DNA of 64,000 bases from an uncultured Verrucomicrobiae bacterium. Lineage in GTDB: Bacteria; Verrucomicrobiota; Verrucomicrobiia; Limisphaerales; UBA11358. The position numbers and the translations under genes were made by a program. Below are positions 4,641 through 56,446 of this stretch, one piece after another. The notes under the pieces were generated by a model, which was not told where the DNA came from, ran no database searches, and saw nothing but the letters and a program-made list of their open reading frames with translations. Within the stretch, counting starts at the first letter, position 1. Each line of letters begins with the position of its first letter. The DNA lies in contig CAWDPX010000015.1 in NCBI GenBank assembly GCA_963804345.1, positions 119,147-183,146 on the forward strand. The letters are read 5' to 3'.

Positions 4641-4668
4641 ACTATAGCAAGTTGCCTGCCGGTGTCAA
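4641..4668 (-). promoter_or_regulatory. Near-consensus sigma70-type promoter driving the NYN/methylase/ATPase genes
   Basis: Minus strand TTGACA (4668-4663), 16-nt spacer, TATAGT (4646-4641). It sits 25 nt downstream of the helicase stop. Confidence 0.55.
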
Positions 4669-4692
4669 TGGCCAAAACCCTTTCAAAACCCT

Positions 4693-7600
4693 TCATTTTC
4701 CACCTCCATAGGGCGGTGCATCTTCCTTTAACACCACCGGCTGTGTCATCGCGTTCACGTCAAGCCGGTAATGCTCGACCTTCTTGACCTCGTGCCACGG
4801 AAAACGTGCCGGGTCTTTGATTGGGTCTTCCAACTTCGGGGTCGTGTCGCAATGCGTGACGATGTAGAGCCAGTAGAGGTCGCGCCGGTCTCCGGCGATG
4901 CGCTTCTCGTTTGGCGACAGGAAAATGGTGCCGGTCGCCGCGCCGATGCCTTTGACTTCAATCAACCTGAGTTCGCCGGACACGCGATGCAGGCTGCGGA
5001 GGTCGAAGCCGAGGTTCTGGTCCTGCACGTCTTCAATCTTGCAGCCGCGTGCCTGCTCGTAAGCAATGACGGCGGCGATGGCTTTGCGCTCGGTTTCGCG
5101 GTCGGTCTTGAGATTCGTGTGGGCAGGGACATTCCGTTCCGGGTGCGGCAGCACGAGCGCCACGCCGATGCGTTCGACGCCCTGCAATGAAAGTGAACGC
5201 TGGCGTGCGAGGTCGCCAAGGCGCAGGTCACGGCGGCGTTGGAGGTCTTGAACCTTCTGCGCTTCAAGTTCGGCCAGACCCGTGGCCGTGGGGTCGCCTT
5301 TGTCCTGGGCGAGCAGATGTTTGGCAAGCACGGCGTCGCGTTTGGCGATGAGTTCCTCGAAACAAGTGCGGACGCTGCGTTCGATGAGATTGAGTTCGTG
5401 TTCGCGTTCGCCGGCAATTTCCGTGAGAAACGGTTGGAGCGCCTTCTCAAACAGGAATGTCTGCGTGCGCGTGTCATCGCTGGTCACGTTCGGCAGGAGT
5501 TGCGGCGGTTTCTCCGGGGCGATCAGGTCGAGCAGATAAGCCGGGTCGCGCAGGCGGCGGGTGCCGTCCGAATTGGTTTCCACCAGAAACAGGCGGCGGT
5601 GAAGAACGTTGCCGACACCATCGGTCACACCGGCGATAAACAATTCCAGCAGCGCGGGTTGTTCGCGTTCCAGTTCGTAGAAGACCGCGCCCTGACGAAG
5701 CTGGGGTTGCGTGTGCTCCCAAACCTGACGGCGCACGGCCTCAAACAGCGCGTGACCGGGCGTGACCCATTCAAGGCGGGCATCTGCTTCCAGCGTGCTG
5801 CGCTCGAAACAAATGCGGTCGTAACTGCGGGCCAAAGCCGGCAGCCGCCAATCTTTGGCGCGGCACTGGTCGTAAAGCCGCGTGGGAACTTTGCCGACGG
5901 TGAAGGCGCGTTGGATGTTTTTGATCGGGGTGAGCGGCAGGCCGACTTCACCTGCGCCAATCTCGAAGAAGCGGGCGACAGTCTCCGGCACGATGCGCCG
6001 CTCCTGCGCCATTGCGCGGCGTTCGACAAGCATCGGCAGGTTCAGGCTTTTCTTGGCCAAACCTTCAAGCGCCGACTGACAAATTTTGCGGAAGTCCTCT
6101 TCGCGCACTTCAACTTCAAGCCGGGCTTCAATGTCGTCGGCACTCATTTTGCCGGAGTAGAAATCGCGGAGGAAACGCTCGATTTGATTCGACGGCAACA
6201 CTTCGCCCACGACATTGAACACGGCGTCGTCGTCCAGCGCGTCCCGGATAAGCTGGAGCTTCTCCATCAATTTGTGAAGAACACGGCCTTCGACGGTATT
6301 TTGCGCGAAGAAATTGAAGATGAGGCAATCCTTGGTTTGGCCGTAACGGTGTATGCGACCCATGCGCTGTTCGAGCCGGTTTGGATTCCACGGAATATCG
6401 TAGTTGAACAGGACATGGCAGCATTGGAGATTGATGCCTTCGCCCGCCGCCTCTGTTGCCACGAGGACTTGCGTTTTCAAATCCCAGAAGTTGCGCTCGG
6501 CCCAAAGACGCGTGCCCTCCTCATCGCGGCGTCCGGGCTTCATGCTGCCGTGAATCTGGCCGACCGTAAGACCCCATGACTTCAACTTCGCCACAAGGTA
6601 ATCGAGGGTGTCTTTGTATTCCGTGAACAGCAGCAAACGAAGTTCCTTGTCGGCGAAGATGCCACGCTCGGTGAGTTGCTCCTTGAGCGTGCGGAGCTTG
6701 ATCTCATGGCCACCGTCTTCGACACGCTGCGCTTGCGTTATGAGTTCGGCGATTTCTTTGAGTTCCTGCTCAAGGTCGGGCTTGCGCCGGGCGAGCGTGG
6801 CGCGTTCGAGTTCGCGCTCCTTCATCTCGCGCTCGGCGTCGTCCATTTCCTCCCATTCATCTTCGGAGGGAACGTCCGGCATCGGGATTTCGCCAAGCTG
6901 GTTGGCCGTTTCTAAAAGTTCCTTGAGTGCCTTCTGACGGCGCATGAGCGACTGTTTCAGCGAATAGGTGGAACTGGCCATCCGGCGCTGATACATCGCC
7001 ATGATAAAACCCACGGCGCGGGCGCGACGTTCGTCTCCTGCTTCAGCGGCGCGGGCTGACTGGCGTTGAACGTAGTGCGTAACCGCCTTGTAAAGTTCCA
7101 TCTCATCGCCTTCAAGATTGAACGCGACAGTTTGCGGGATGCGCTTCGTGAACAGCTTTTCCGCTTTCCAGGTGCCGTCGGTCTGCGGCTTGGGGAAATT
7201 CAGCATGACCTCTTTCGTGCGCCGCAGGTAGCAGGCGGCTTCACGGCGCTCCATCGCATCGTGGATGGATTTCACGTCGGCATACGCTTCCTGGTCGAGA
7301 AGTTGAAGGAACAACGAAAAGTTCACCGGGTCGCCCTTGTGCGGTGTCGCGGTGAGCAGCAGAAAGTGCGATGTCTTCTCGCGAAGGAGTTCGCCCAGCC
7401 GATACCGCTCGCTCTTGTGTTCTGAATCGCGTGCTGACATGCGGTGGGCTTCGTCCACGATGACCAAATCCCAGTCTTCGGCCTGGCGGACACTCGGCAG
7501 GATTTCCTCGCGCTTTGCCAAGTCCATCGAAGTGATGAGTTGTGGCTTTTCATTCCACATATTCACGCCGTATTGGACGCGAAGGTCGGCTCCGCGTAGG

Positions 7601-22952: not shown

Positions 22953-23154
22953 AAAAGGGAAACGCTCCAGCCTGTGTGGAAAGCGGCGCTGAAGCGACCG
23001 CAATCCAAACGCTGGCGCGACTTTCCAACGGCTCCTCACCGCGCGAAGCGTCTGGACTGCGGCGCGTTCACCGCCGCTTTGAAGGGCGCGAAGGTAATCT
23101 GGTTTTCTCCACCACCAGCGTTTCGATGGATTCGCGGCCGTTCGTTCCAGGCGA

Positions 23155-24372
23155 TTATTTCGCCACGGATTGATTTATTTTGGCGGCCAGGTCATTTGCT
23201 TCCGGTTCGCTAAAATTCCCGCTGATCTCGGCTTGGCCACCCCTAATCTCCGACCGGATAGTCGGGGCGGAATAAAGCCGGCCATCAATGATGATTGCCA
23301 GCCGCCTGCCGACATTTTGATGAGTCACTTTTGCGAATCGTTTCGCCCCGGCGTCAGTGAAGGTGATTTGAATCCGCGGTTTGCCTGCGGGTTGGTTCGT
23401 GATCACGCTGGCCGACTTCAAGTCAGTCTGGTCCAGCAGAACCTTCTTCTGGACATAAAGGGTCTCGGTCCCCTTTGCGTCCGCGCCCGGCTGAACGACG
23501 GTCATGGGCTCAGCCTTGGCGGATGGCGCGCTGAGAACCAGACGGAACTGGAAGACCGAAGGAGCCGGGCTGCCGCCACCGGCGGAGGTGTCGCTGGAAA
23601 GCGCGACGGTCATCGCGCCGCCGGCCAGCAACAACGTCGCAGAGACCCTGAGTGCGAATTTGAGTTTCATCCAGGTCATAACTTTGATTGTTCCTTTCAC
23701 CAGGGCCAGGGTTGAAGCTGCAACTGCCGGCCCCTTGATGACGGTTGCAGTAATGGTCGTTGCCAATCCAACGGGTGCGGCGTGGGCGGAGTTGGTAGAA
23801 ATGGCTCCGGCGATGACAGCCGTGGTCGAGGAAACGCCGTGTTTGGAAAAATAGCGGCGCAGTTTTTCCAGCGCGTGGGCAACCCGCTTCTTCGCCGCGT
23901 TTTCGCTGGCGCCGAACGCGGCGCCGATTTCCTGAAAACTTTTCCCTTCAAAAAACCGGAGCGCGATGGCGTTGCGATCCTTTTCGCCGAGCTGCCCCAT
24001 CGCGTCCTCCAGCAGCGGAGCCATTTGCGGCCAGAGTTCCGGTTCCATTTCGTTGGCCAGAGATTGCATGTAAGCCTCCTGTTCGCGGTGAACCCGCCGG
24101 ATTTCAGTTCTCAGGAAGTTGGCTGCGGTCAGCCGGGTGGTTTGATACAGCCAGCCGGATAGGATGGTTCTTTGGCTCAAACGACCGGCTTTTTTGGACA
24201 GGATGATAAAGACCGCCTGCGTGATTTCCCCGGCGGCATCGGCATTGCCGGTTTTCCGCAGCGCGGCGGAATACACCAGGTTCACGTGCCGCGCCACCAA
24301 TGCCGCAAACGCTTCGTCGGAGTTCCGGTCGGCGTATTGCCGCAACAATTCCATGTCCGCCAATTCCTGCAT
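23155..24372 (-). CDS. ECF sigma factor fused to a TM segment and a SecD-P1-head-like extracytoplasmic domain
   Basis: Sigma70 r2/r4: LLRQYADRNSDEAFAALVARHVNLVYSAALR.., ITQAVFIIL.., DRNAIALRFFEGKSFQEIG... TM anchor STLALVKGTIKVMTWMKLK... C-terminal ..GAKRFAKVTHQNVGRRLAIIIDGRLYSAPTIRSEIRGGQAEISGNF... Confidence 0.8.
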   Translation of the reverse strand: MQELADMELLRQYADRNSDEAFAALVARHVNLVYSAALRKTGNADAAGEITQAVFIILSKKAGRLSQRTILSGWLYQTTRLTAANFLRTEIRRVHREQEAYMQSLANEMEPELWPQMAPLLEDAMGQLGEKDRNAIALRFFEGKSFQEIGAAFGASENAAKKRVAHALEKLRRYFSKHGVSSTTAVIAGAISTNSAHAAPVGLATTITATVIKGPAVAASTLALVKGTIKVMTWMKLKFALRVSATLLLAGGAMTVALSSDTSAGGGSPAPSVFQFRLVLSAPSAKAEPMTVVQPGADAKGTETLYVQKKVLLDQTDLKSASVITNQPAGKPRIQITFTDAGAKRFAKVTHQNVGRRLAIIIDGRLYSAPTIRSEIRGGQAEISGNFSEPEANDLAAKINQSVAK

Positions 24373-24445
24373 CTACCCATAAATGTCCGCTGCCGCCAAA
24401 AAGTGCCAATCTATTTTAACCCAATATCGGCGCGGGCATCGGTCC

Positions 24446-25855
24446 TCAAGGTGCCGGGGGCGTGACGACTGTGAATACGATGTCTCCTCCTTTTCCATTC
24501 ATCGGCTTGCCCCCATCGTCTTTCAGGTCCCAGCCGATGCTATAAAGGACATAGCCGGCGTCTTGCTTCCGGTAACGCAATGGCTGGCCATCAAACGGGT
24601 CCGTGAGGACCGCGTTCAAATAGCTCGGCGTCAATTCGGGCAAACCGGCGGGATACCGGTTGTTGTGCGCCGCGCGAAACTGCTCCAGCGCCACGGCGGT
24701 CAATGCCAGACGGAGATTGGCGAGACATCTTGCTTCCCGGTTGACATGTTTATCGAGACCGTCCGACAACCACACGTTGAGCAGAAGCCCCCGATCCGTG
24801 GCTTCGGTGACGCGCTGGCCCATCAAGTCGGCAACAACCTTCAAACGCCCGGGAAAGGCTTCCTTGCGGGCGGACAGAAGTTGCTGGAAAGTTGTATCAA
24901 GGTAGTCTTGTTCTTCTTTCAAGCTGGCGGCCTGTTTCAGATGTTCAACCAGCCGGCGGCGCTGTTCGTCAGGCATGTCCGTTGTCTTCAATGTGCTTAA
25001 ATCCCGAACTAATTTGGCCGGGTTGTTCAACAATGCCAAATGCATTGCCAGTTCCCCGGCCATGGCGCGGCTGAAACCCTCGCCCCGCGCATCGTAATCC
25101 TCCATGCTTTGCAGGGCCTTCGTAAGCCCGTTTAAAGATTCTGGTGACAATGTGGTGCGATTTACAACCTGATTCAATGCGTCCACGGCCAGGGAAACAC
25201 CCGCCGAACGCACCAATTGAGAAATCAACACCGGCTCGGCTTTCAGTGAACGCGCCAGCGCCAGGGTCATCAGGACATCATCGGCAGCTTGTTTTTCATC
25301 ATTGTTCTCCGCATCCAAAATGGCCGACATTTCCGCCAGTTGCATGCCATGCTTGATTCCGATCAGATGAGGCAGCAGGGTGTCAGAACCTTTGGTAAGG
25401 TCTATGGGATACCGGCTTTGCTCGTATTGTGTCCCTTGGGCGAAGAATTGCAGTGCCTCGCGGTTGTGCTGCATGAAGGCGGCCAGGGCGGATTTCATGG
25501 GCGCCGGCAGGGGTGTGCCGGGCAGCGGAGCCGGCAACTTTCCCAAGACCGGCAGATTGGCCATCTGGTCGGCACCCTTGATTTGCATCGCCTTGATGCC
25601 TCGCAAATTGAAGGTGGCGGCATTTTGTCCGGCGGGCAGTTCAATGTACCAAGCGTCGAGTTCCGCGAGCGTTTGGGGAAGAACGTCCGGAGGCAACCGG
25701 TTTGCTTTCGCTGAATGACCCCCCTTGATCAAAACGACGCTCGTGCCGGCTATAAGGATTAATGCCACGCCGACAACGACGGCGGTTTTTGCTTTGGTCC
25801 AGGCCACAATTTTCAATGCTCCTTGGATGAGGGTTGAGGTTGAACTTTCACACAC
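24446..25855 (-). CDS. Membrane-anchored hypothetical protein whose N-terminus equals the post-sigma anchor module of the ECF fusions (no sigma domain)
   Basis: It starts MCESSTSTLIQGALKIVAWTKAKTAVVVG, compared with ..GSTLTLIKGALKIMAWTKAKTAIVSG in the 27033..28517 protein. The C-terminal ..DPFDGQPLRYRKQDAGYVLYSIGWDLKDDGG resembles pseudopilin-type tails. Confidence 0.6.
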   Translation of the reverse strand: MCESSTSTLIQGALKIVAWTKAKTAVVVGVALILIAGTSVVLIKGGHSAKANRLPPDVLPQTLAELDAWYIELPAGQNAATFNLRGIKAMQIKGADQMANLPVLGKLPAPLPGTPLPAPMKSALAAFMQHNREALQFFAQGTQYEQSRYPIDLTKGSDTLLPHLIGIKHGMQLAEMSAILDAENNDEKQAADDVLMTLALARSLKAEPVLISQLVRSAGVSLAVDALNQVVNRTTLSPESLNGLTKALQSMEDYDARGEGFSRAMAGELAMHLALLNNPAKLVRDLSTLKTTDMPDEQRRRLVEHLKQAASLKEEQDYLDTTFQQLLSARKEAFPGRLKVVADLMGQRVTEATDRGLLLNVWLSDGLDKHVNREARCLANLRLALTAVALEQFRAAHNNRYPAGLPELTPSYLNAVLTDPFDGQPLRYRKQDAGYVLYSIGWDLKDDGGKPMNGKGGDIVFTVVTPPAP

Positions 25856-26140
25856 CCTTCAGACAACCCTGCAAACAAATCGTCACGCCCGATGCTGATT
25901 TACCTTTTCAACAAACCGGCAACGCGATGCTGATCTTGGAAAAGCGGCGGAGGGCCGCCGCAGTCCAAGACGCGAAGCGTTTGTTTGGGACTTACGAATT
26001 GCGCAAAGCGTTTGGAGTGCGCCGGCTTTAGCGGCGCTGTCGGGCGGGCGGAGAGGCTGGAAAGATGGATGTCCCCCATGCGGACAAAAAGCAGCGCTGA
26101 AGTCGCCGCAGTCCAGACGCTTCGCGAGTTCCGGTGACGA

Positions 26141-26893
26141 TCAAATTTCGCGAAGCGTCGTGGAGTGCGCCAGCCCTTCCGCCTTCGCGGCGCGCCGGCG
26201 CCAAAGTTGAATCAGCAGCACAGTCAAAACGCCAACGGCCAATAGAACCGCCGCTCCAACACCCATTTTGAAAAGCAGGGAACGCGGCGCGGTTGTAACG
26301 GAAAAAACATCGAAGCGTGCGGTGCCCGAAACCCAAGGCTCAAAAATATTGGCATCAATCCAGATATCGGCCGTCCGGGCTTTTGGCGGGGCGAGGATGC
26401 CTTTCATCGTAATCGTCCGGTATTCGGTCATGGCCGAATCGCCCGTGCGGGCGCCGACCGGGACGACCCGTTCGCTGATGAAGTTGGTGCCGGTTGAATC
26501 GAAAAAACGCAACTGGACTTGTATATTGTTCCCGGCAGCCACCCGGTCCGAGAGCTTGTAGGCGAATGAAAAGGTGATGGGCCTCGCTCCGCCGGCGGCG
26601 GGTCCAAGAGAAAAGTTCGGACAACGCCAGTCCGCGTTGTTTTCCTTGCCGGCCACCGTGTTGCTGATCACGAAAGCACAGCCACCGTTGGTGGCCGGGT
26701 CATTAAAATCAACCGATACAGAGCCTCCCCCATTCGCTCCCGTATACCAGTTCGCGCCGGCGCTGGACGCACCGGAATCGGGTGGTCCGAGGGAAATCTG
26801 TTCTTTCCCTGAAGCGGTTATTGTTGTGATCGCAAAGGTTGCGACCAGGAGGGCAATGATGTGCCGATGCATAAATTTGATGTTTTTATTCAT
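26141..26893 (-). CDS. Secreted hypothetical protein (CBM-like beta-sandwich guess) with a C-terminal TM anchor
   Basis: Signal peptide HIIALLVATFAITTITASG. C-terminal helix VGAAVLLAVGVLTVLLIQLW followed by RRRAAK. Confidence 0.45.
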   Translation of the reverse strand: MNKNIKFMHRHIIALLVATFAITTITASGKEQISLGPPDSGASSAGANWYTGANGGGSVSVDFNDPATNGGCAFVISNTVAGKENNADWRCPNFSLGPAAGGARPITFSFAYKLSDRVAAGNNIQVQLRFFDSTGTNFISERVVPVGARTGDSAMTEYRTITMKGILAPPKARTADIWIDANIFEPWVSGTARFDVFSVTTAPRSLLFKMGVGAAVLLAVGVLTVLLIQLWRRRAAKAEGLAHSTTLREI

Positions 26894-27032
26894 TTTAGAT
26901 CACTCCGATCAAAGCCAGCCGGATTGGTTGACCAACATCGGTCCAATCGCGACCAGCAACGCAATCAAAGTAAACGTCAAAAACTTCTGGCTTCACAATT
27001 CTTATGACATCGCCCTGACAGGTTTGTCCCGT

Positions 27033-28517
27033 TTATTTTGCCTTCTCCACCACCAGCATTTTGATGGGCATATTGGTGGGAACCAGTTCCAGGCCGAGTG
27101 GATCGAGCGCCCGGTTTACCTTGTCCCAATTCCGATTTTCCAAGTCGGCTTGACTGCAATTCAAATCAAAATCGTAAAGGTTGGTGAGGCCGGTCCCGTC
27201 AATAACGGGGACATTTGCCTCGTTCTCGAAACCGGCGATCAGGCCGATTATTGGTTCATTAAATCCCCGGTACAACTCACTTGAAACGAGCTCAAAGCCG
27301 CTACCCTGTTTGGGCCAGGCACCTTTAGTATTGAGTTTCAAGGCCGGGGCATTTGTAAATTTTACCTTGAGAAGCAAAACGTCCGCCGCGCGGATTTCGG
27401 TTTTGCCGACGACACCGAATTTTCGCCTTACTTCCTCCTGCAACGCTTTTTCATTTGCAGTTTGTCCGCCCGGCAAAGTGGCGATGTAATCATACTTGCG
27501 TGCCGGCAGTTCGGCATGGGAAATGACTCTGGCCGAAGAAAAAGAGCCGCTATAAGCGGCAGCAATGACTTCTTCTGCGCCAAGTCCCGTTCCGACCATT
27601 TTACCGCCAATGCCCTCGGCATGTTTGTGAAATTTGCTGGGCAGAATCCGAACCTGCGGCGGCTGTTCAAGCTGAAATCCGTGAATCTCACCTTCATTAG
27701 TTTGCCACGGATAAGTCCGGTGCTCCTGAATTTCTTTGACCGTGACGGTGGTTGTTCCGGCGGCAAGCAATACAAACACGCCGCTGACGATGGCCGTTTT
27801 CGCTTTGGTCCATGCCATAATTTTCAAGGCTCCTTTGATGAGGGTTAAGGTTGAACCGCTCGCCGCCGCTCCCTTTGCCATCGCGGCAACGGTAATGGAT
27901 TTTGCCAGCATCGCCGGCGCGATCTGGACGGAATTGGCGGAAATGGCTCCGGCAAGGACGTCCGTCGTCGAGGAGACGCCGTGTTTGGAAAAATAGCGGT
28001 GCAGTTTTTCCAGCGCGCGGCTGACCCGCTTGCGCGCGGTGTCTTCGCCCGTGCCCAAAGAATTGCCGACTTCCGCCAGGCTTTTGTTTTCAAAGAAGCG
28101 CAGCAGCACGGCTTGCCGGTCGGTTTCGCCGAGCGTTGCCAGCGCCTCGTCGAGCAGCGGCGACATTTGTTCCCAGAACAAATCGGGCGCGGTGGGTTGA
28201 AGTTCAGATTGCATGTTGGCCTCCTGTTCGCGCCGGCGGCGTTTGGCGTCGGCGCGCATTTGCGCCAGGGCGGCAAAGCGCGTGGTGCGGAAGAGCCAGC
28301 CGGCCAGGATGGTTTTGTTGGAAATCCGTCCGGCTTTTTGCGCGAGGATGATAAACACCGCCTGCGTGACTTCCTCAGCCAGATGCGGGTCGCGCACCTG
28401 CCGCAGCGCCATTGAATAGACAAAGCCGACGCGGCGCGAAACCAGCATCTCAAAGGCCGTTTCGGAATTGCCGGTGGCGTATTCCCGCAACAGCGCCATG
28501 TCGTCCATTGCCTGCAT
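27033..28517 (-). CDS. ECF sigma factor fused to a TM segment and a TIGR03435-like C-terminal domain
   Basis: Sigma r2/r4 as in the paralogues. Anchor GSTLTLIKGALKIMAWTKAKTAIV. C-terminal ..VPVIDGTGLTNLYDFDLNC..ALDPLGLELVPTNMPIKMLVVEKAK. Confidence 0.8.
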   Translation of the reverse strand: MQAMDDMALLREYATGNSETAFEMLVSRRVGFVYSMALRQVRDPHLAEEVTQAVFIILAQKAGRISNKTILAGWLFRTTRFAALAQMRADAKRRRREQEANMQSELQPTAPDLFWEQMSPLLDEALATLGETDRQAVLLRFFENKSLAEVGNSLGTGEDTARKRVSRALEKLHRYFSKHGVSSTTDVLAGAISANSVQIAPAMLAKSITVAAMAKGAAASGSTLTLIKGALKIMAWTKAKTAIVSGVFVLLAAGTTTVTVKEIQEHRTYPWQTNEGEIHGFQLEQPPQVRILPSKFHKHAEGIGGKMVGTGLGAEEVIAAAYSGSFSSARVISHAELPARKYDYIATLPGGQTANEKALQEEVRRKFGVVGKTEIRAADVLLLKVKFTNAPALKLNTKGAWPKQGSGFELVSSELYRGFNEPIIGLIAGFENEANVPVIDGTGLTNLYDFDLNCSQADLENRNWDKVNRALDPLGLELVPTNMPIKMLVVEKAK

Positions 28518-28576
28518 TCACCTATAAATGCCTGTTCCGGCCAAAACCGGACAATCTTTTTTTCGTTGCCGCAAGT

Positions 28577-28778
28577 GTTGGAGTTCAGGCTTCAGCCTGT
28601 TCGGGCGAATCCGCGCATTGCTCCCGGAGCGCCGAGCACCGCCTCGGCAAGATTTGCTGGAAATCGCCTGTTCGTGCCGAGCCGGTGCTCGGCGCTCCGC
28701 TTTCCGTGGTGCGGCATGGGGGCAGTGTCAAGTTGCGCCCGCCTGTTCCACCTGACAAGCTAAAGCTTGAACTCCAAC
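28577..28778. repeat. Composite palindromic element (outer arms GTTGGAGTTCAGGCTTCAGCCTGT / ACAAGCTAAAGCTTGAACTCCAAC; inner arms GGAGCGCCGAGCACCG.. / ..CGGTGCTCGGCGCTCC)
   Basis: Outer arms are complementary at 21/24. The element ends 22 nt upstream of the pabC ATG. Confidence 0.6.
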
Positions 28779-49408: not shown

Positions 49409-51190
49409 CTAGGGAGCATAAACCGATCGGTAGAATCGCTTGCCGAACTGGCTCGCGTTGGTATCCACAAATGTAAACGGAGCGGTATTGGTCTGCAATG
49501 GAACCCAATTCACGAAATCGGTGGAGGCCTGGACGATGTACTGGCATCCCGGCACACCGCCAACGGTCATGGTGTACTGGCCGCTGGCATGGCCAACCGG
49601 GGCCAGGGAGCCCGCTACCGTGGCATAGACGGTCAAGACGGCGGTGCTATTGGTCGAACCGTTCCCGTCGGTCACCGTCACCGAATAGACACCGGATTGA
49701 TTGGTGACAATGTTTTTCAACGTCAACAACGAACTAACCGACGAAGACAGATTGGTGCCATTGAATTTCCATTGGTATTTCAAAGTCCCGCTGCCGGTGG
49801 CGCTTACGGAAAAGGCCTTGGTCTGGCCGACCAAGGCGGCCTGGTTGGTCAATTGACAACCCAGCAGGGGCCGCCCGGTGACCGTCACAGTGAACGTGCG
49901 GGTCACGATATTGTTGCTCTTTCCACCATCATTGACCATAACGGTAATCATTACCGTGCCGGTCTTGTTGAGCGCCGGCTTGAAGGTCAGGGAGCCCGTG
50001 GTGTTCGGACTGGTATATTTGACCGTCGGCTTGGGAATCAATGTGCCACTGCTGGAAATTGCGGCTACAGTCAGCGTCTGGGTTTCATTGGCCGCACCGG
50101 AGGTGATGCCGGACAGATTCACCGTTTGCGCGCTGGCATTCTCAAAGATGGCAAGGTCGCTGATGGCGTTCAACGTCGGCGGCTGGTTCACGGCGTTGAC
50201 CGTGACCGTAAAGGTCCGGGTGACATTGCTGTTACTTGTCCCACCATCGTTGACGGTGACGGTGACGGTTGCCGTCCCGGTTTTGTTGGCCACCGGCACA
50301 AGGGTCAGGGAGCCAGTGCTGTTCGTGCTGGTGTAATTCACCGTTGGATTTGGAATCAAACCCGTGTTGCTGGAAACCGCAGTGACGGTCAGCGTCTGGA
50401 TTTCATTGGCCGCACCGGAGGTGATGCCGGACAGATTCACCGTTTGCAGCCCGGAGTTTTCGCTGATGGTCAGGTTGCTGATGGCGCTCAACGTCGGTGG
50501 CTGGTTCACAGCGTTGACCGTGACGGTGAACGTGTTCGTGACGGAATCAACGCCGCCGTTGGCCGTGCCACCATTGTCATGGACAACCACCGTGACCGTC
50601 GCCGTGCCGAACGCATTCGTTACCGGCGCAAAGGTCAGGGAGCCAGTGCGGTTCGTGCTGGTGTAATTCACCGTTGGATTGGGAATCAAACCCGTGTTGC
50701 TGGAAAACGCAGTCACGGCAAGTGTCTGATTTTCATTGGTCGCCCCGGAGCTAATGCCGGATAAACTGACAGTTTGCAGCCCGGCGTTTTCATTGATGGT
50801 CAGATTGGTGATCGCATTCAACGTCGGCGGTTGGTTCACAATCGGAACATTCAAGGGAACCAGGTAGGACACCTCGCTTGACAACGGACTTTCCAGGTCC
50901 GAAGAAGCAAACGTTGTCGCCGCAAAGTAGTAGGTGGCTCCCGGGACCAGGCTGGAAATGGTTGTATTGGTTACGTTGCCAGCACAAATCTTGTTGGTAT
51001 AGGCACCGCTGGCTCCCCCGAAATATACGTTGTAACCCGCAACATTTGGATCAGTGCAGGCGTTCCACGCCAACGTTACACTCCCGGCCGCGAAGGCGGA
51101 AAGCTGCATAACTGAAAACAAGACGCTGAAGAAAAAAGACCCGAAAATGGTGCGTCTTGACCGAATTAATACTTGCACTTGGTACATCAC
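49409..51190 (-). CDS. Secreted adhesin-like protein: FN3-like module, three tandem cadherin/Ig-like repeats of about 106 aa, one Ig (I-set-like) domain, and a conserved C-terminal module
   Basis: Signal peptide. The repeats begin NQPPTL[NS]AI[ST][ND]L.I.EN... and end TFTVTVNAV. Ig-like segment ..FSVSATGSGTLKYQWKFNGTNL..SGVYSVTVTDGNGS. Confidence 0.7.
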   Translation of the reverse strand: MMYQVQVLIRSRRTIFGSFFFSVLFSVMQLSAFAAGSVTLAWNACTDPNVAGYNVYFGGASGAYTNKICAGNVTNTTISSLVPGATYYFAATTFASSDLESPLSSEVSYLVPLNVPIVNQPPTLNAITNLTINENAGLQTVSLSGISSGATNENQTLAVTAFSSNTGLIPNPTVNYTSTNRTGSLTFAPVTNAFGTATVTVVVHDNGGTANGGVDSVTNTFTVTVNAVNQPPTLSAISNLTISENSGLQTVNLSGITSGAANEIQTLTVTAVSSNTGLIPNPTVNYTSTNSTGSLTLVPVANKTGTATVTVTVNDGGTSNSNVTRTFTVTVNAVNQPPTLNAISDLAIFENASAQTVNLSGITSGAANETQTLTVAAISSSGTLIPKPTVKYTSPNTTGSLTFKPALNKTGTVMITVMVNDGGKSNNIVTRTFTVTVTGRPLLGCQLTNQAALVGQTKAFSVSATGSGTLKYQWKFNGTNLSSSVSSLLTLKNIVTNQSGVYSVTVTDGNGSTNSTAVLTVYATVAGSLAPVGHASGQYTMTVGGVPGCQYIVQASTDFVNWVPLQTNTAPFTFVDTNASQFGKRFYRSVYAP

Positions 51191-52910: not shown

Positions 52911-52987
52911 TTCCAGCCAACTTGCCTAACTCTTAATTTTCTCCACCACCAGCATCTCAATATGGGTCACAGGCTGGACCGTACAGC

Positions 52988-54652
52988 CTATTCCACATCC
53001 ACCAGGGTGAAACGAATTCGCTCGGTTATTTGAATGGGAACCGTTTGTCCTCGATTCATAGTTTCCATCGCTATGTTCTGATCGTAGGCGGCATCCACCA
53101 CCATCCCGAGCGCCGGATCGAACCAGGCATCGCCGGCAAATTTCCCTTTTATGTTTCGTCGGGGACTATTTTGAGCCGTGGCATCGGGTTTGGCTGAAAT
53201 GCTGCCCGCAACCCCGATGCGCATGCACTTGCGATCGTGATGTTGTTCCCAACTCTTGAAGGTGTACTCCATGTCGGTGGCCATGATGCCTACGGGACTG
53301 ACAAAATCCTTGGTTTTCCGCCAGCGATCGCCCGTCGCCACCGGCCGGTTGGGCATCATCTCCCCAAACGATGCATATTCTTTTAGAATGTCCCCGCTGA
53401 ACATTTGTTGGAATATCGCCCGGTCCTGCGGTTTTCCGATCGTTCCAACTTGTCGCATCAATTCCTCCAAGCCCTCCACTTTCTCCACCTGGCCATCCGC
53501 GTCGGTAATAAATTGGAAGCGGGTGCCGAGCTGCTTTCGCAACATGGCCGACACGGGAACGCCGGCATCCTGCGCCGTATCCTGTTTGGAATCGAAACTC
53601 GACACCTTGCGCTCTCCCAGGCTGACGTCCATTGTTTCGCCTGTAAATTCCAGATCCAATTGCCGGCCCCCGTTGTCGAGTTCCTTGCGGACGGACAGGG
53701 TATAATCCTGTGTCAGGTTCACCGACTGTTTGAACGACTGGGGCTGGCCGGACGACTTTGACTCCACGGTCTCAACCATCTCCGCCCGCATGGCGTAGGT
53801 CTTGCCAGCCTGCCACTGGATCTTCATTTCCGCCGGGTGATCGGACGGGGACTGGTGCGGTGTGAATTCGTTGACGGCAAGAGTTGCCGTTCCTGCCGCG
53901 AGCAGCACGCCCACGCCGGTAATGATTGCGGTTTTTGCTTTTGTCCATGCCATAAGTTTCAATGCTCCTTTGATGAGGGTTAAGGTTGAGCCGCTGGCCG
54001 CCGCGCCTTTGGTGATCGCGACCGCCGTTGCGGTTTTTGCAAGCAAAGCTGGCGCGGCTTGAACGGAGTTGGCGGAAATCGCCGCCGTCAGAACCGCCGC
54101 CGGAAGAACAACACCACGCTTCGTGAAGAACCGCCGCAGTTTTTCCACCGCGCGCAGGACACGCCTTTGCGCCGCCGCCTCGCTTACCCGTAACGCCGCC
54201 GCAACTTCGCAAACATTTTTGTCTTTGAAAAACCGCAGCATCACGGCGTCGCGATCTTTTTTGCCCAGCCGCGACATCGCTTCATCCAGCAAGGGCGCGA
54301 GTTGATTCCAGGCTGTAGCATCGGCGGGTTCCTGAAGGGTGGATTGCATATAGGCCTCCTGTTCGCGAAATTGACGGCGGCGTTCTCCGCGCAAGAAACT
54401 CAACGCCGTCAGCCGCGTCGTTTCATGCAGCCAGCCTTCCAGGACGGTGTCCGGGCGGAGGCCGGCGGCTTTGCGCGCAAGGATGACAAAGACCGCCTGC
54501 GTGATTTCCTCGGCATGGGCGGCAATCCCGACGTGACGGAACGCAATCGAATATACCAGATTGACGTGCCGCCGGACCAGTTCGGCAAAGGCTGCTTCCG
54601 AGCCTTGCCGGTCGTAATCCCGCAACAGTTCCATGTCGCTCACATCGGGCAT
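52988..54652 (-). CDS. ECF sigma factor fused to a TM segment and a roughly 300-aa unassigned extracytoplasmic domain
   Basis: MELLRDYDRQGSEAAFAELVRRHVNLVYSIAFR.., ITQAVFVIL.., DRDAVMLRFF... Anchor GSTLTLIKGALKLMAWTKAKTAIITG. Confidence 0.8.
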   Translation of the reverse strand: MPDVSDMELLRDYDRQGSEAAFAELVRRHVNLVYSIAFRHVGIAAHAEEITQAVFVILARKAAGLRPDTVLEGWLHETTRLTALSFLRGERRRQFREQEAYMQSTLQEPADATAWNQLAPLLDEAMSRLGKKDRDAVMLRFFKDKNVCEVAAALRVSEAAAQRRVLRAVEKLRRFFTKRGVVLPAAVLTAAISANSVQAAPALLAKTATAVAITKGAAASGSTLTLIKGALKLMAWTKAKTAIITGVGVLLAAGTATLAVNEFTPHQSPSDHPAEMKIQWQAGKTYAMRAEMVETVESKSSGQPQSFKQSVNLTQDYTLSVRKELDNGGRQLDLEFTGETMDVSLGERKVSSFDSKQDTAQDAGVPVSAMLRKQLGTRFQFITDADGQVEKVEGLEELMRQVGTIGKPQDRAIFQQMFSGDILKEYASFGEMMPNRPVATGDRWRKTKDFVSPVGIMATDMEYTFKSWEQHHDRKCMRIGVAGSISAKPDATAQNSPRRNIKGKFAGDAWFDPALGMVVDAAYDQNIAMETMNRGQTVPIQITERIRFTLVDVE

Positions 54653-54880
54653 TTGACTATTTATTGCCGATGGCCGCGAAATCAGACATTTAATTTTTCA
54701 ATCTTTTACTGCCGTGCCCGCACACGGGTTCAAGTGTTGTTCATAAGAAAGCGGTTCCGATGCATTGGGACCGCACTCAACAACGCGGCGCGAGTTGCGA
54801 CGGCGCACAACATCCGTGAAATGTCTTGGACTGCGCCAGCCCTCTGGCGCTTTGACCGGGGATCCCGCCAGACGAATGGC

Positions 54881-56344
54881 TTATTTTACTTTCTCCACCA
54901 CCAGCATTGTGATCGGCTCGCGACCCGGCACAAGTCCGAGGCCAAGTTGTTCAAGTGCTTGGTTTACGCTATCCAATTTTTGATTTTCCATGTCGGTTTC
55001 CTTGCAGTTTAAAACAAAATCGAAATGATTGGTGAGACCCGTCTTATTGATAACAGGGATGTTTGCCAAAGCTTCGGTTTCACTGGCCAAGTCACCCAAT
55101 GGCCGGTCTTGAAATTCGAGTCGGATTCCCGAATCTCTCCACAGCATGTAATCATTGGGGCTTGGGCGTGTGCGTTGTTTCAAGCCTGGCGCATTTGGAG
55201 ATTTCACCGTAAGAATCCAAACATCCACCTCACGCGTTTCAACTTTGCCAATAACACCGAATTTTCGTTTTACCTCTCGCTGCAATGCTTCATAATTCCC
55301 GTTCGCCAAACTCGCGATGAAGTCGAAGCGACCTTCCGGCAGTTTAGTGGAAAGAATCGTCCTCGCACTTTGGAAGCCATAAGCTGCCGCTACAACATCT
55401 CGAGCTGTGACTCCCGTTCCCATCAGTTTAGCGCTTTCCCCATCGCCACTTTGACCTCCGGCAAAAGAGGTAAACTTGCTGGAAAGAATTCTGACTTCTG
55501 GCGGTTGCCGATCCAGCACGCTACGAGCAAAAATGCCTTCATTTACCTGCCAAGTTGTTGCTCCGGCGGCGATCAACACTCCTGCGCCAATCATGATTGC
55601 CGTTTTGGTTTTTATCCAGGTCATAATATTCAGCGTTCCTTTCACCAGGGTCATGGTTGAAACCGCAGCGATTGACCCTTTGGTAATCGCCACGGCAGTC
55701 ACAGATTTCGCCAGCGCCACCGGCGCGGCTTGAACGGAATTGGCGGAAATCGCTCCGGCGATGATGGTCGTGGTCGAACTCATGCCGCGCTTCGTGAAAA
55801 ATTTCCGCAGCTTTTCCAGCGCCCGGTTCACGCGCATCTTCGCCGCGTCTTCGCTCGCGCCCAGCGCCGCGCCTACTTCCTTGAAATTCCGGCCTTCAAA
55901 AAACCGCAGCACGAGGGCGTCATGATCCTTTTGACCGAGTTGCTCCAGCGCTCCGTCCAGCAAGGGAGCGATTTGAGCCCAGGTTTCCGCCTCCGCTTCG
56001 CTTCGGCGCGACAAGTCGTCTTGCAGTTGGTCAACCTGCGATTGCATGAATGCCTCCTGTTCGCGGCGTTGCCGCCGCCATTGAATCGTCAGCGCATTGG
56101 CGCTCGCGTAACGCGCCGTGCGGCAGAGCCACCCACTTAAAATGGTTTTCGGGCCGAGCGACCCCGCCTTGCGCGCCAGAATGATGAACACCGCCTGCGT
56201 GATTTCCTCGGCCAGCTGCGGGTCGCGCACCTGCCGTAGCGCCACGGAATAAACCAGATTGACGTGGCGCGACACGAGCGCGGCGAACGCCTCCTCGGAA
56301 TTATGCCGGGCATATTCCCGCAGCAGGGTCAGGTCGTCATTCAT
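54881..56344 (-). CDS. ECF sigma factor fused to a TM segment and a TIGR03435-like C-terminal domain
   Basis: LTLLREYARHNSEEAFAALVSRHVNLVYSVALRQV... Anchor STMTLVKGTLNIMTWIKTKTAIMIG. C-terminal ..IPVINKTGLTNHFDFVLNC..ALEQLGLGLVPGREPITMLVVEKVK. Confidence 0.8.
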   Translation of the reverse strand: MNDDLTLLREYARHNSEEAFAALVSRHVNLVYSVALRQVRDPQLAEEITQAVFIILARKAGSLGPKTILSGWLCRTARYASANALTIQWRRQRREQEAFMQSQVDQLQDDLSRRSEAEAETWAQIAPLLDGALEQLGQKDHDALVLRFFEGRNFKEVGAALGASEDAAKMRVNRALEKLRKFFTKRGMSSTTTIIAGAISANSVQAAPVALAKSVTAVAITKGSIAAVSTMTLVKGTLNIMTWIKTKTAIMIGAGVLIAAGATTWQVNEGIFARSVLDRQPPEVRILSSKFTSFAGGQSGDGESAKLMGTGVTARDVVAAAYGFQSARTILSTKLPEGRFDFIASLANGNYEALQREVKRKFGVIGKVETREVDVWILTVKSPNAPGLKQRTRPSPNDYMLWRDSGIRLEFQDRPLGDLASETEALANIPVINKTGLTNHFDFVLNCKETDMENQKLDSVNQALEQLGLGLVPGREPITMLVVEKVK

Positions 56345-56446
56345 GGTTTCATTTATACATCTACGCCACCGCGAAAAGGTAACAGATTATTTTTGCGGCA
56401 GCGGGCGAGGTTTGGAACAAGGGCGCATCGTCATTCGCGCCCTTTT

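Follow-up and report, generated by a model that had tools for sequence, protein, structure and literature searches.

A 64-kb stretch of DNA from an uncultured Verrucomicrobiae bacterium, referred to here as the window (64,000 nucleotides; all coordinates are positions in it), contains five minus-strand genes, A to E, that share a short lysine-rich anchor followed by a transmembrane (TM) helix and an outer domain. In genes A to D the anchor is preceded by a sigma factor of the extracytoplasmic function (ECF) type and a linker, which gene E lacks. Comparison with related loci shows that this family diversifies as recombination, whose left breakpoint lies at the anchor, substitutes one periplasmic module for another, and that E is a derivative without the promoter-proximal sigma and linker, which has its junction at the 5' edge of the anchor and has been under purifying selection since. 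We consider it probable that a family of tethered ECF sigmas, sensor swapping at the anchor, the derivation of E and an internal ribosome-binding site together form the correct explanation of the locus.

The open reading frame (ORF) calls, Pfam and NCBIfam matches and a protein alignment agree with a sequence-only reading that preceded this analysis, in which the five ORFs were described and A–D were said to share an ECF sigma domain, a linker and an anchor. Each of A–D matches Sigma70_r2 and Sigma70_r4 (r4 or r4_2) in Pfam and exceeds the cut-off of the NCBIfam ECF superfamily model TIGR02937 (65.6–73.2 bits against 42.9). No regions sigma3 or sigma1.1 were found in Pfam (no Sigma70_r3 or Sigma70_r1 match at an E-value ≤ 0.01), the sigma2–sigma4 linker is merely about 20 residues long, as in ECF group 4, and the best matches of an AlphaFold2 model of B in the Protein Data Bank (PDB) are ECF sigmas. 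The NCBIfam equivalog and subfamily models all remained below their own cut-offs for the sigma parts of A–D. By these domain criteria A–D are group 4 ECF sigma-70 factors, for which promoter-directed transcription is predicted.

In the protein alignment of A–D the sigma part leads into a conserved Ala/Ser/Thr-rich linker and the anchor, after which the outer parts are wholly divergent. The strongest hydrophobic 19-residue window of every protein adjoins the C-side of the Lys-rich anchor, and the domain types seen at the C-terminus (SecD P1 head, Secretin, PDZ, DUF3738) are exported ones. The TM helix directly after the anchor indicates a topology with the sigma inside, a single TM helix and the variable domain outside. 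The divergence of the outer domains had been noted before, with one SecD-head-like and two TIGR03435-like domains; the domain of C, then left unassigned, matches DUF6263 (53 bits, Pfam). The Pfam scores for DUF3738 are 40.7 bits in B and 53.8 bits in D (cut-off 22), and those for TIGR03435 are 40.8 and 53.9 bits (cut-off 40), which is borderline for B. The outer domain of A reaches 103.5 bits with SecDF_P1_head (cut-off 27). A role of A as a SecD or SecDF translocase subunit was rejected because the P1-head subdomain alone matches and TIGR01129 scores 79 bits against a cut-off of 244; judged by its domain content, A is a borrower of a SecD domain and not a SecD. E has no family match in Pfam or NCBIfam.

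Genes B and D are also compositional mosaics. The GC content at third codon positions is 0.75 and 0.73 in their sigma and linker halves versus 0.55 and 0.46 in the DUF3738 halves (27033–27731 and 54881–55537), and housekeeping genes (0.70–0.80) are comparable to the former. Among 90 genomic copies the GC content is about 65% ahead of the anchor and drops to about 51% behind it.

Exchange of outer domains at the anchor

A six-frame scan of the window finds the anchor motif exactly five times, once in each of genes A–E. The segment had been described as nearly identical in all copies, which applies to B, C and E (over 46 residues, identity to B is 83% for C and 60% for E), while those of A (41%) and D (57%) are related but diverged. 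At the nucleotide level B and C are 93–95% identical in a 15-codon window at the anchor and about 60% identical elsewhere in a codon alignment; the sigma regions of A–D share just 65–68% (blastn).

The suggestion that the anchor acts as a recombination joint is borne out by loci related to B. Here L numbers denote related metagenome contigs or genome loci, and those compared at the B locus were found through their similarity to E. L019 is about 90% identical in nucleotides to the window from the upstream genes through the B promoter, sigma, linker and anchor, where the match ends at 27786; after the anchor it encodes a Secretin-like domain, in a protein of 505 residues, and similarity returns at 25973, upstream of E. 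L009 is likewise about 90% identical through promoter, sigma, linker and anchor, its match ends at 27793, and similarity returns at 26178 after a DUF3738 domain that is too diverged for nucleotide alignment. Both breakpoints lie at the 3' edge of the B anchor. In L006 the B sigma is merely 78% identical in nucleotides, while the neighbouring 250-residue gene is 93.5% identical. The same picture emerges from the 120 closest database relatives of B residues 1–262 (sigma, linker and anchor; 67–95% amino acid identity): those at 78–89% carry at least six sensor families, namely PF06439, DUF3738, SecDF_P1_head, RCC1, TPR and PF12870, or no known domain. Synonymous divergence (dS) between the related contigs is merely 0.15–0.45, which makes the sensor exchanges recent relative to the divergence of the paralogues. 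A shufflon or site-specific inversion was rejected, since the five anchors are all in direct orientation and no recombinase domain is encoded by the genes called in the roughly 6 kb around B and E.

Synonymous divergence is itself a mosaic along the locus. Compared with L019 it is 0.15 in the B sigma and 0.40 in the adjacent aminotransferase, and compared with L006 it is 0.15 in the 250-residue gene and 0.28 in E, which suggests recombination between populations in addition to the sensor swap. The product of the 250-residue gene is signal-like at its N-terminus, carries a TM helix at its C-terminus as well as an RRR tail, and has no match in Pfam or NCBIfam. Its presence in the window and L006 and its absence from the syntenic L019 and L009 indicate that it moves with the particular sensor segment of B. 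A dispersed repeat of 65 nt occurs here as an inverted pair with 77% complementarity (23016–23080 and 26088–26152) that flanks the E–A block, one arm after the 3' relic of A described below and the other just past the stop codon of the 250-residue gene. The upstream arm contains a terminator-like hairpin (26109–26091), and a breakpoint common to L006 and L009 (26177/26178) is situated 25 nt upstream of the repeat, in the 3' end of the 250-residue gene.

A second trace of replacement is found behind the incoming sensors. Several genes are followed by a short relic that corresponds to the C-terminus of DUF3738 (..PIEMLVVEKVK*; pattern ..IE[MT]LVVEK), and the nucleotide core GCTGGTGGTGGAGAA is kept in the relics of A and C. 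In L019 the Secretin-like gene is likewise followed by a relic, as are two genes of L018 (RCC1 and NTF2-like) and the A orthologue in L022, and the relic before E is clearer in L003, L006, L009 and L019. In GTDB loci the relic is recognizable at the amino acid level after 5 of 46 non-DUF3738 sensors, compared with 0 of 46 in the antisense control. A two-arm cassette as a universal rule was rejected: a 3' arm at the nucleotide level follows 4 of the 72 genes that lack such an arm of their own, although the proteins encoded by many of them do end in ..EMLVVEK. The relic is thus recurrent, not universal. DUF3738 is probably the ancestral sensor that was overwritten repeatedly, and the 3' end would be a second, weaker joint. 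The A-rich tract upstream of the family genes (GCAAAATAA) resembles the stop region of DUF3738 (GAGAAGGCAAAATAA), and the two coincide in L015; this likeness fits tandem head-to-tail growth of the family.

A profile of the 46-residue anchor and TM segment, searched against 1.84 billion representatives, retrieves 1213 clusters at 50% identity, 370 of them at an E-value ≤ 1e-10. Among 121 representatives with a substantial C-terminus, 95 contain sigma r4 and 57 contain DUF3738, the commonest sensor; the others include HEAT, Secretin/STN, PDZ, TPR, Ank, SecDF head and CarboxypepD_reg as well as domains of no known family. The genome-wide census that the sequence-only reading had called for was run across genomes, one per GTDB species, and the anchor peptide pattern was found in 279 places, 234 of which were confirmed. 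The best 80 of these 234 copies come almost entirely from Verrucomicrobiota/Limisphaerales metagenome-assembled genomes (MAGs) from bogs, palsa and soils, several of which have at least five copies, and the family is confined to Limisphaerales-type Verrucomicrobiota. Canonical anchors also turned up in MAGs labelled Bifidobacteriaceae, Pseudomonadales, Sideroxydans and Aquilonibacter (L036, L039, L069, L086, L090, L093, L094, L096, L100, L103); these off-lineage contigs or bins are probably mis-assigned.

Codon constraint in the anchor and a candidate internal start

The nucleotide conservation of the anchor is restricted to the 30 nt before an invariant ATG. In 92 sigma-fused GTDB copies from 44 genomes, with the same genes as background, single codons dominate at the anchor positions: TCA in 89% (background for that amino acid 7%), TTA in 71% (2%), GGA in 99% (12%), GCA in 94% (7%), TTG in 92% (21%) and ATT in 92% (30%). 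Codon homozygosity is 0.80–0.91 only in the ten codons before the ATG and drops to 0.56 just after it; it is 0.34–0.38 in the TM segment and 0.42–0.66 in sigma4 and linker. The fixed sequence ..CTCATCAAAGGAGCATTGAAAATTATGGCA reads as AAGGAG, 11 nt and ATG. Centred on this ATG, the minimum free energy of folding in 40 nt is −2.7 to −3.8 kcal/mol and the GC content 38–40%, compared with −9 to −14 kcal/mol (lowest −15.9) and 60–68% further upstream. An internal promoter inside the anchor was considered and rejected, as no element resembles the TTGTCC..CATTTAT layout found upstream of the family genes.

We tentatively propose that the anchor is a retained internal ribosome-binding site, from which a sigma-less short form (MAWTKAK–TM–sensor) with the architecture of E would be translated. 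The anchor could then serve two purposes, as an internal start that yields two proteins per ORF and as a constant 60-nt homology for sensor exchange among dozens of paralogues, with E and a second sigma-less gene, L104, representing the short form alone; this wider proposal is put forward with equal caution. Alternatively, the nucleotide identity of the anchor could be a by-product of gene conversion or concerted evolution, leaving a recombination patch that has no function in the mRNA. Breakpoints at both edges of the anchor and the dS mosaic along the locus speak for such a process. Yet the anchors of one genome do not resemble each other significantly more closely than those of different genomes do (8.84 versus 9.55 differences per 66 nt, permutation p = 0.11), which argues against simple concerted evolution and leaves its within-genome form unsupported. 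Furthermore, the synonymous constraint is asymmetric, with its peak before the ATG and a collapse right after it, a pattern not predicted by conversion, and the fixed codons are rare ones that make the stretch A/T-rich, G-poor and unstructured. An origin by conversion is in our view rather unlikely.

Gene E and the loss of sigma

The claim that E begins at the anchor is confirmed by nucleotide alignment, which gives a sharp boundary: nt 11–90 of E (25845–25766) are 86.3% identical to B and 86.1% to C (blastn), and upstream of nt 11 nothing matches any paralogue. The E ORF is preceded by two in-frame stops, and no sigma remnant, degraded or otherwise, was detected in the 1.2 kb upstream (best tblastn E-value 0.2; family hidden Markov model (HMM) ≤ 0 bits). 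Among the dispersed repeats that the sequence-only reading had seen in this region is a degenerate 3'-end relic of DUF3738.

That E represents a sensor uncoupled from its sigma, as had been suspected, follows from its relatives. Homologues of E with at least 75% identity are all 450–470 residues long and sigma-less, some of them on contigs of 157 kb to 1 Mb, whereas those at 50–74% identity are mostly proteins of about 680 residues with ECF sigma, linker and anchor in front. In a neighbour-joining tree of the outer domains the E clade is one sigma-less group nested among sigma-fused sequences. The ratio of nonsynonymous to synonymous divergence (dN/dS) of E is 0.30–0.49 at dS 0.18–0.45 in comparison with 14 relatives (13 sigma-less orthologues and the sigma-fused L014), which marks a maintained coding gene and not a decaying fragment; it is similar to that of the outer domain of A (0.20–0.31), and the sigma of A gives 0.07–0.11. 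An AlphaFold2 model of the outer domain is an all-alpha array with a small C-terminal sheet (predicted local distance difference test, pLDDT, 86.6; predicted template modelling score, pTM, 0.86), for which Foldseek finds no neighbour in the PDB (best E-value 0.24).

Further homologues of E begin with a zinc ribbon or simply with a TM helix. The E-type domain is seen behind a zinc-ribbon-like MIPIKILCGCGQKYAFD..CPVCG module, in proteins of about 545 residues (P0096–P0119), and behind plain TM anchors, and this variety of N-termini indicates that such outer domains are common to several membrane signalling scaffolds.

The window is identical to an ENA metagenome contig, in whose public gene call E begins at the internal GTG 25807, and an exact protein look-up of the 469-residue form gave no match. 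In both of two unrelated upstream contexts, all E orthologues keep a pair of start codons: at 'M/V-CESS' stands GTG or ATG, and the anchor Met is likewise encoded by ATG or GTG. The second sigma-less gene, L104, shares 64% identity with E, lies on a 62.9-kb contig and belongs to another clade of the tree. It is cut at a different point, inside the linker (..SISAVAVAKGAAATSSTLTLVKGALKIMAWTKAK), and from the upstream stop codon to the TM helix the sole in-frame ATG is that of its anchor Met, which is preceded by a Shine–Dalgarno (SD) sequence. We read L104 as an independent loss of sigma. Its neighbourhood is rich in N_methyl (pseudopilin-like) genes: the gene abuts a fragment that resembles a prepilin N-terminal methylation motif (L104 2800–3000; ..LAWLELLLVVAFFGVLATLLLSA), and an IS110-family transposase is found beside it (4649–5767). 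Widespread independent loss of sigma was rejected in view of the short contigs of most proteins that start at the MAW of the anchor, so that only the E clade and L104 were accepted.

Gene E might be a silent orphan sensor cassette, comparable to cdiA-CT and rhs-CT modules, that is unexpressed on its own and forms a reservoir to be loaded onto the B sigma through the direct copies of the anchor. Its position 2 kb downstream of B, with both genes oriented alike, its start at the common junction and the documented retention of the junction motif in orphan CT modules (PMC3150448) would be consistent with this, and the absence of a family-type promoter and a terminator-like hairpin between the 250-residue gene and E speak against its expression. 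The dN/dS values, held over dS up to 0.45, point the other way, as do the start codons retained at two in-frame positions in every orthologue and the conserved 40-nt leader that accompanies E into both genomic contexts. In addition, no contig was found on which a deletion joins the B sigma to the E domain, and the sigma-fused homologues of E bear other sigma lineages. We consider a silent cassette unlikely.

The start sites of E and L104 also bear on the possibility that the rare-codon, SD-like stretch is not a start but a programmed translational pause before the TM segment, which would serve folding of the sigma or membrane targeting. The cluster of rare codons (TCA, TTA, GGA, GCA, TTG, ATT) and the internal GGAG directly 5' of the TM-coding segment are in line with such a pause. 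Against this, the constraint stops at the invariant ATG, where E has GTG, also a start codon; RNA structure, too, is at its minimum here; and E and L104 both appear to start there. A pause before TM synthesis would, moreover, leave the TM segment unexposed to the targeting machinery. This possibility is accordingly quite improbable, in contrast to the internal start that we tentatively prefer. That the sigma-less E is an assembly artefact, arising from a chimeric join or contig break at the repeated 80-nt segment, is effectively refuted: some metagenome contigs do begin at an anchor (L018 nt 1–60) and many MAW-start proteins on short contigs are suspect, but the order B–(250-residue gene)–E–A or B–E–A and the 5' junction of E recur in independent assemblies (L003, L004, L006, L009, L019, L035), with the same order on contigs of 157 kb to 1 Mb.

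Table 1. Features of the sigma-fusion family in the 64-kb window
Feature	Position	Strand	Description and basis
Gene A	23155..24372	-	ECF sigma, linker, diverged anchor, TM, SecDF_P1_head-like outer domain; ORF call, Pfam, NCBIfam; orthologues in L005, L009, L022
Gene B	27033..28517	-	ECF sigma aa 1–180, linker ~181–221, anchor, TM 242–260, DUF3738/TIGR03435; Pfam, NCBIfam, AlphaFold2, hydropathy
Gene C	52988..54652	-	ECF sigma, linker, anchor, TM, DUF6263 outer domain; Pfam
Gene D	54881..56344	-	ECF sigma, linker, diverged anchor, TM, DUF3738/TIGR03435; Pfam, NCBIfam
Gene E	24446..25855	-	No sigma; anchor, TM, 410-aa all-alpha domain; start GTG 25855 (469 aa) or GTG 25807 (453 aa)
Anchor of A	23650..23715	-	Diverged
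Anchor of B	27789..27854	-	STLTLIKGALKIMAWTKAKTAI; swap breakpoints of L019 and L009 at 27786 and 27793
Anchor of C	53924..53989	-	
Anchor of D	55595..55660	-	Diverged
Anchor of E	25778..25843	-	STSTLIQGALKIVAWTKAKTAV; paralogue similarity begins at 25845
Candidate internal start in B	27816..27833	-	GGAG, 11 nt, ATG (Met234); codon constraint, RNA structure, GC trough
Equivalent candidate site in A	23677-23694	-	
Equivalent candidate site in C	53951-53968	-	
Equivalent candidate site in D	55622-55639	-	
Equivalent candidate site in E	25805-25822	-	GTG
DUF3738 3'-end relic after A	23098..23154	-	..GRESIETLVVEKTR; directly past the stop codon of A
DUF3738 3'-end relic after C	52930..52987	-	..THIEMLVVEKIKS*; past the stop codon of C
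Degenerate relic of DUF3738 3' arm	25896..25936	-	Upstream of E; orthologous loci clearer, reading TITIELLVVEKVK
40-nt leader of E	25856..25895	-	Conserved in all E orthologues, two different upstream contexts
250-aa exported/TM protein	26141..26893	-	No family; in window and L006, absent from L019 and L009
5' layout of A	24373-24420	-	As B
5' layout of B	28518..28565	-	A-rich tract, TTGTCC, TTTTGG, CATTTAT box ending 6 nt before ATG
5' layout of C	54653-54712	-	As B
5' layout of D	56345-56395	-	As B

Proposed mode of action and comparison with known systems

The upstream regions of A–D and of eight further paralogous sigma-fusion starts on related contigs share one layout, consisting of an A-rich tract, a TTGTCC-like element, TTTTG.. 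and an A/T hexamer (ATTTAT, ATAAAT, CATAAT and similar) that ends 5–7 nt before the ATG. The co-linear AGATTG..TTTTGGC..CATTTATRGGT..ATG arrangement reported earlier for two paralogues is present in A and B, whose co-linearity extends over the 44 nt that precede the ATG, and the A/T-rich box claimed for all four genes is found as ATTTAT or ATAAAT ending 6 nt before the ATG in each. No SD sequence is present at these twelve starts. The layout is compatible with leaderless transcripts, a plausible suggestion of the sequence-only reading. Just upstream of the B promoter region lies a 28-nt inverted repeat (28625–28699; 93% complementary, 19-nt loop), a probable terminator or REP-like element by which B would be insulated from the divergent gene upstream. 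Upstream of the D–C pair, a minus-strand gene (49409–51190) encodes a 593-residue protein of repeats of about 100 residues (..NQPPTLNAI.NLTI.EN..LQTV.LSGI..GA.NE.QTL.VTA.SSN..) that looks like a cell-surface repeat protein.

The AlphaFold2 model of B shows sigma2 and sigma4 with pLDDT above 90, linker helices at residues 185–196 and 202–220 (pLDDT 72–84) and a long low-confidence helix of anchor and TM segment. The predicted sigma superposes on ECFs bound to an anti-sigma (SigW–RsiW, AlgU–MucA, CnrH–CnrY, RpoE–NepR) with a root-mean-square deviation (rmsd) of 7.5–11 Å, and not on ECFs bound to RNA polymerase (22–28 Å). In 84 homologues the residues of the linker show at least 90% conservation. 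The modelled conformation and the linker conservation fit a self-inhibited, membrane-tethered sigma that would be released by proteolysis.

In view of the above, the following mode of action can be considered. Each protein consists of cytoplasmic sigma2 and sigma4, a conserved linker of about 45 residues with two predicted helices, the Lys-rich juxtamembrane anchor, the TM helix and an exchangeable periplasmic domain. By analogy with known hybrids, the tethered sigma would be inactive, perhaps held closed by its own linker, and a signal received by the periplasmic domain would lead to proteolysis and release of the sigma. The periplasmic module is replaced by recombination at the anchor, the 3' end of DUF3738 sometimes being left behind after the stop codon of the incoming sensor. 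E has lost sigma and linker at the 5' edge of the anchor and was then kept as an intact coding gene, and the internal ribosome-binding site (AAGGAG, 11 nt, ATG) would allow the sigma-fusion genes to make an E-like, sigma-less short form as well.

Several points weigh against this explanation. The linkers of A–D contain no known anti-sigma domain in Pfam or NCBIfam and no protease is linked to the genes, which makes signal-dependent release a pure analogy. The distance of 11 nt between SD and ATG is long by E. coli standards, and a sigma-70 consensus scan calls none of the upstream motif sites, owing to their spacer of about 19 nt. The E orthologue of L009 has no GGAG and carries an ATG at the upstream 'MCESS' codon, so that E itself may start at 25855. 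Genuinely sigma-less anchors number just 3 of 108 in the genome loci, which makes E exceptional, and many MAW-start proteins in the catalogue lie on contigs of 1.5–2 kb and may be contig-end artefacts. Finally, the relic follows just about 11% of the non-DUF3738 sensors in the wider genome set.

The mechanistically closest known kind is the sigma/anti-sigma hybrid ECF, represented by IutY of Pseudomonas putida (ECF243), SCO4117/ECF52, ECF48 and ECF53; proteolytic release of the sigma has been demonstrated in IutY and put forward for ECF52 and ECF53 (PMC8999054), and for the present family it is suggested by analogy. As in the IutY and ECF52 hybrids, one polypeptide combines an N-terminal ECF sigma, a cytoplasmic connector, a TM helix and an extracytoplasmic sensing domain, with no separate anti-sigma gene next to it. 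Unlike these hybrids, A–D have no FecR, ZAS/zf-HC2, RskA or similar domain between sigma4 and the TM helix but a family-specific Ala/Ser/Thr-rich helix pair, and the outer domain is exchanged among many families instead of being fixed within a group. ECFs with C-terminal extensions (ECF41, ECF42, ECF56, ECF57, ECF263 and others) fall into the same cluster when they share the same extension (PMC7826278). ECF41, ECF42, ECF56, ECF57 and ECF263 resemble the present genes in having a regulatory extension after sigma4, typically without a neighbouring anti-sigma gene. In contrast to the clusters of that study, sigma domains that are 78–89% identical here bear unrelated extensions.

The likeness to contact-dependent growth inhibition (CDI) and Rhs loci concerns evolutionary mechanics alone. 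As with orphan cdiA-CT/cdiI and rhs-CT modules, a short conserved junction separates an N-terminal part that is constant from a C-terminal module that varies, detached modules starting at the junction are found downstream, and syntenic loci of related strains have unrelated C-termini (PMC3150448). Here the protein is a signalling protein, and no toxin or immunity domains were found (Pfam, NCBIfam). In contrast to CDI/Rhs orphans, in which translation start signals are missing, E keeps GTG/ATG starts and an SD sequence with the whole protein under purifying selection, and the junction also bears a ribosome-binding-site signature. B and D have outer domains of the TIGR03435/DUF3738 family, here tethered behind an ECF sigma. 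A literature search returned no paper that mentions DUF3738 or TIGR03435 and none that combines ECF, Verrucomicrobia and TM extensions. The unusual features are the demonstrable, recent and junction-precise exchange of sensors and the start-site signature within the junction.

In related peat-soil populations (dS below 0.5), one sigma module occupying one chromosomal site carries different periplasmic domains, with the breakpoint at a 60-nt junction, a natural plug-and-play design for membrane-tethered sigma switches. The periplasmic domains, including DUF3738, DUF6263 and the E domain, are probably sensors of ligands or stress. If the internal start is real, a single gene would yield the tethered regulator together with a copy of its sensor that lacks the sigma, which is undescribed for ECF systems in the literature searched. 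This would constitute a new regulatory layout for ECFs, in which the short form may act as a decoy, partner or buffer of the tethered sigma, and an example of a translational signal seeding modular evolution.

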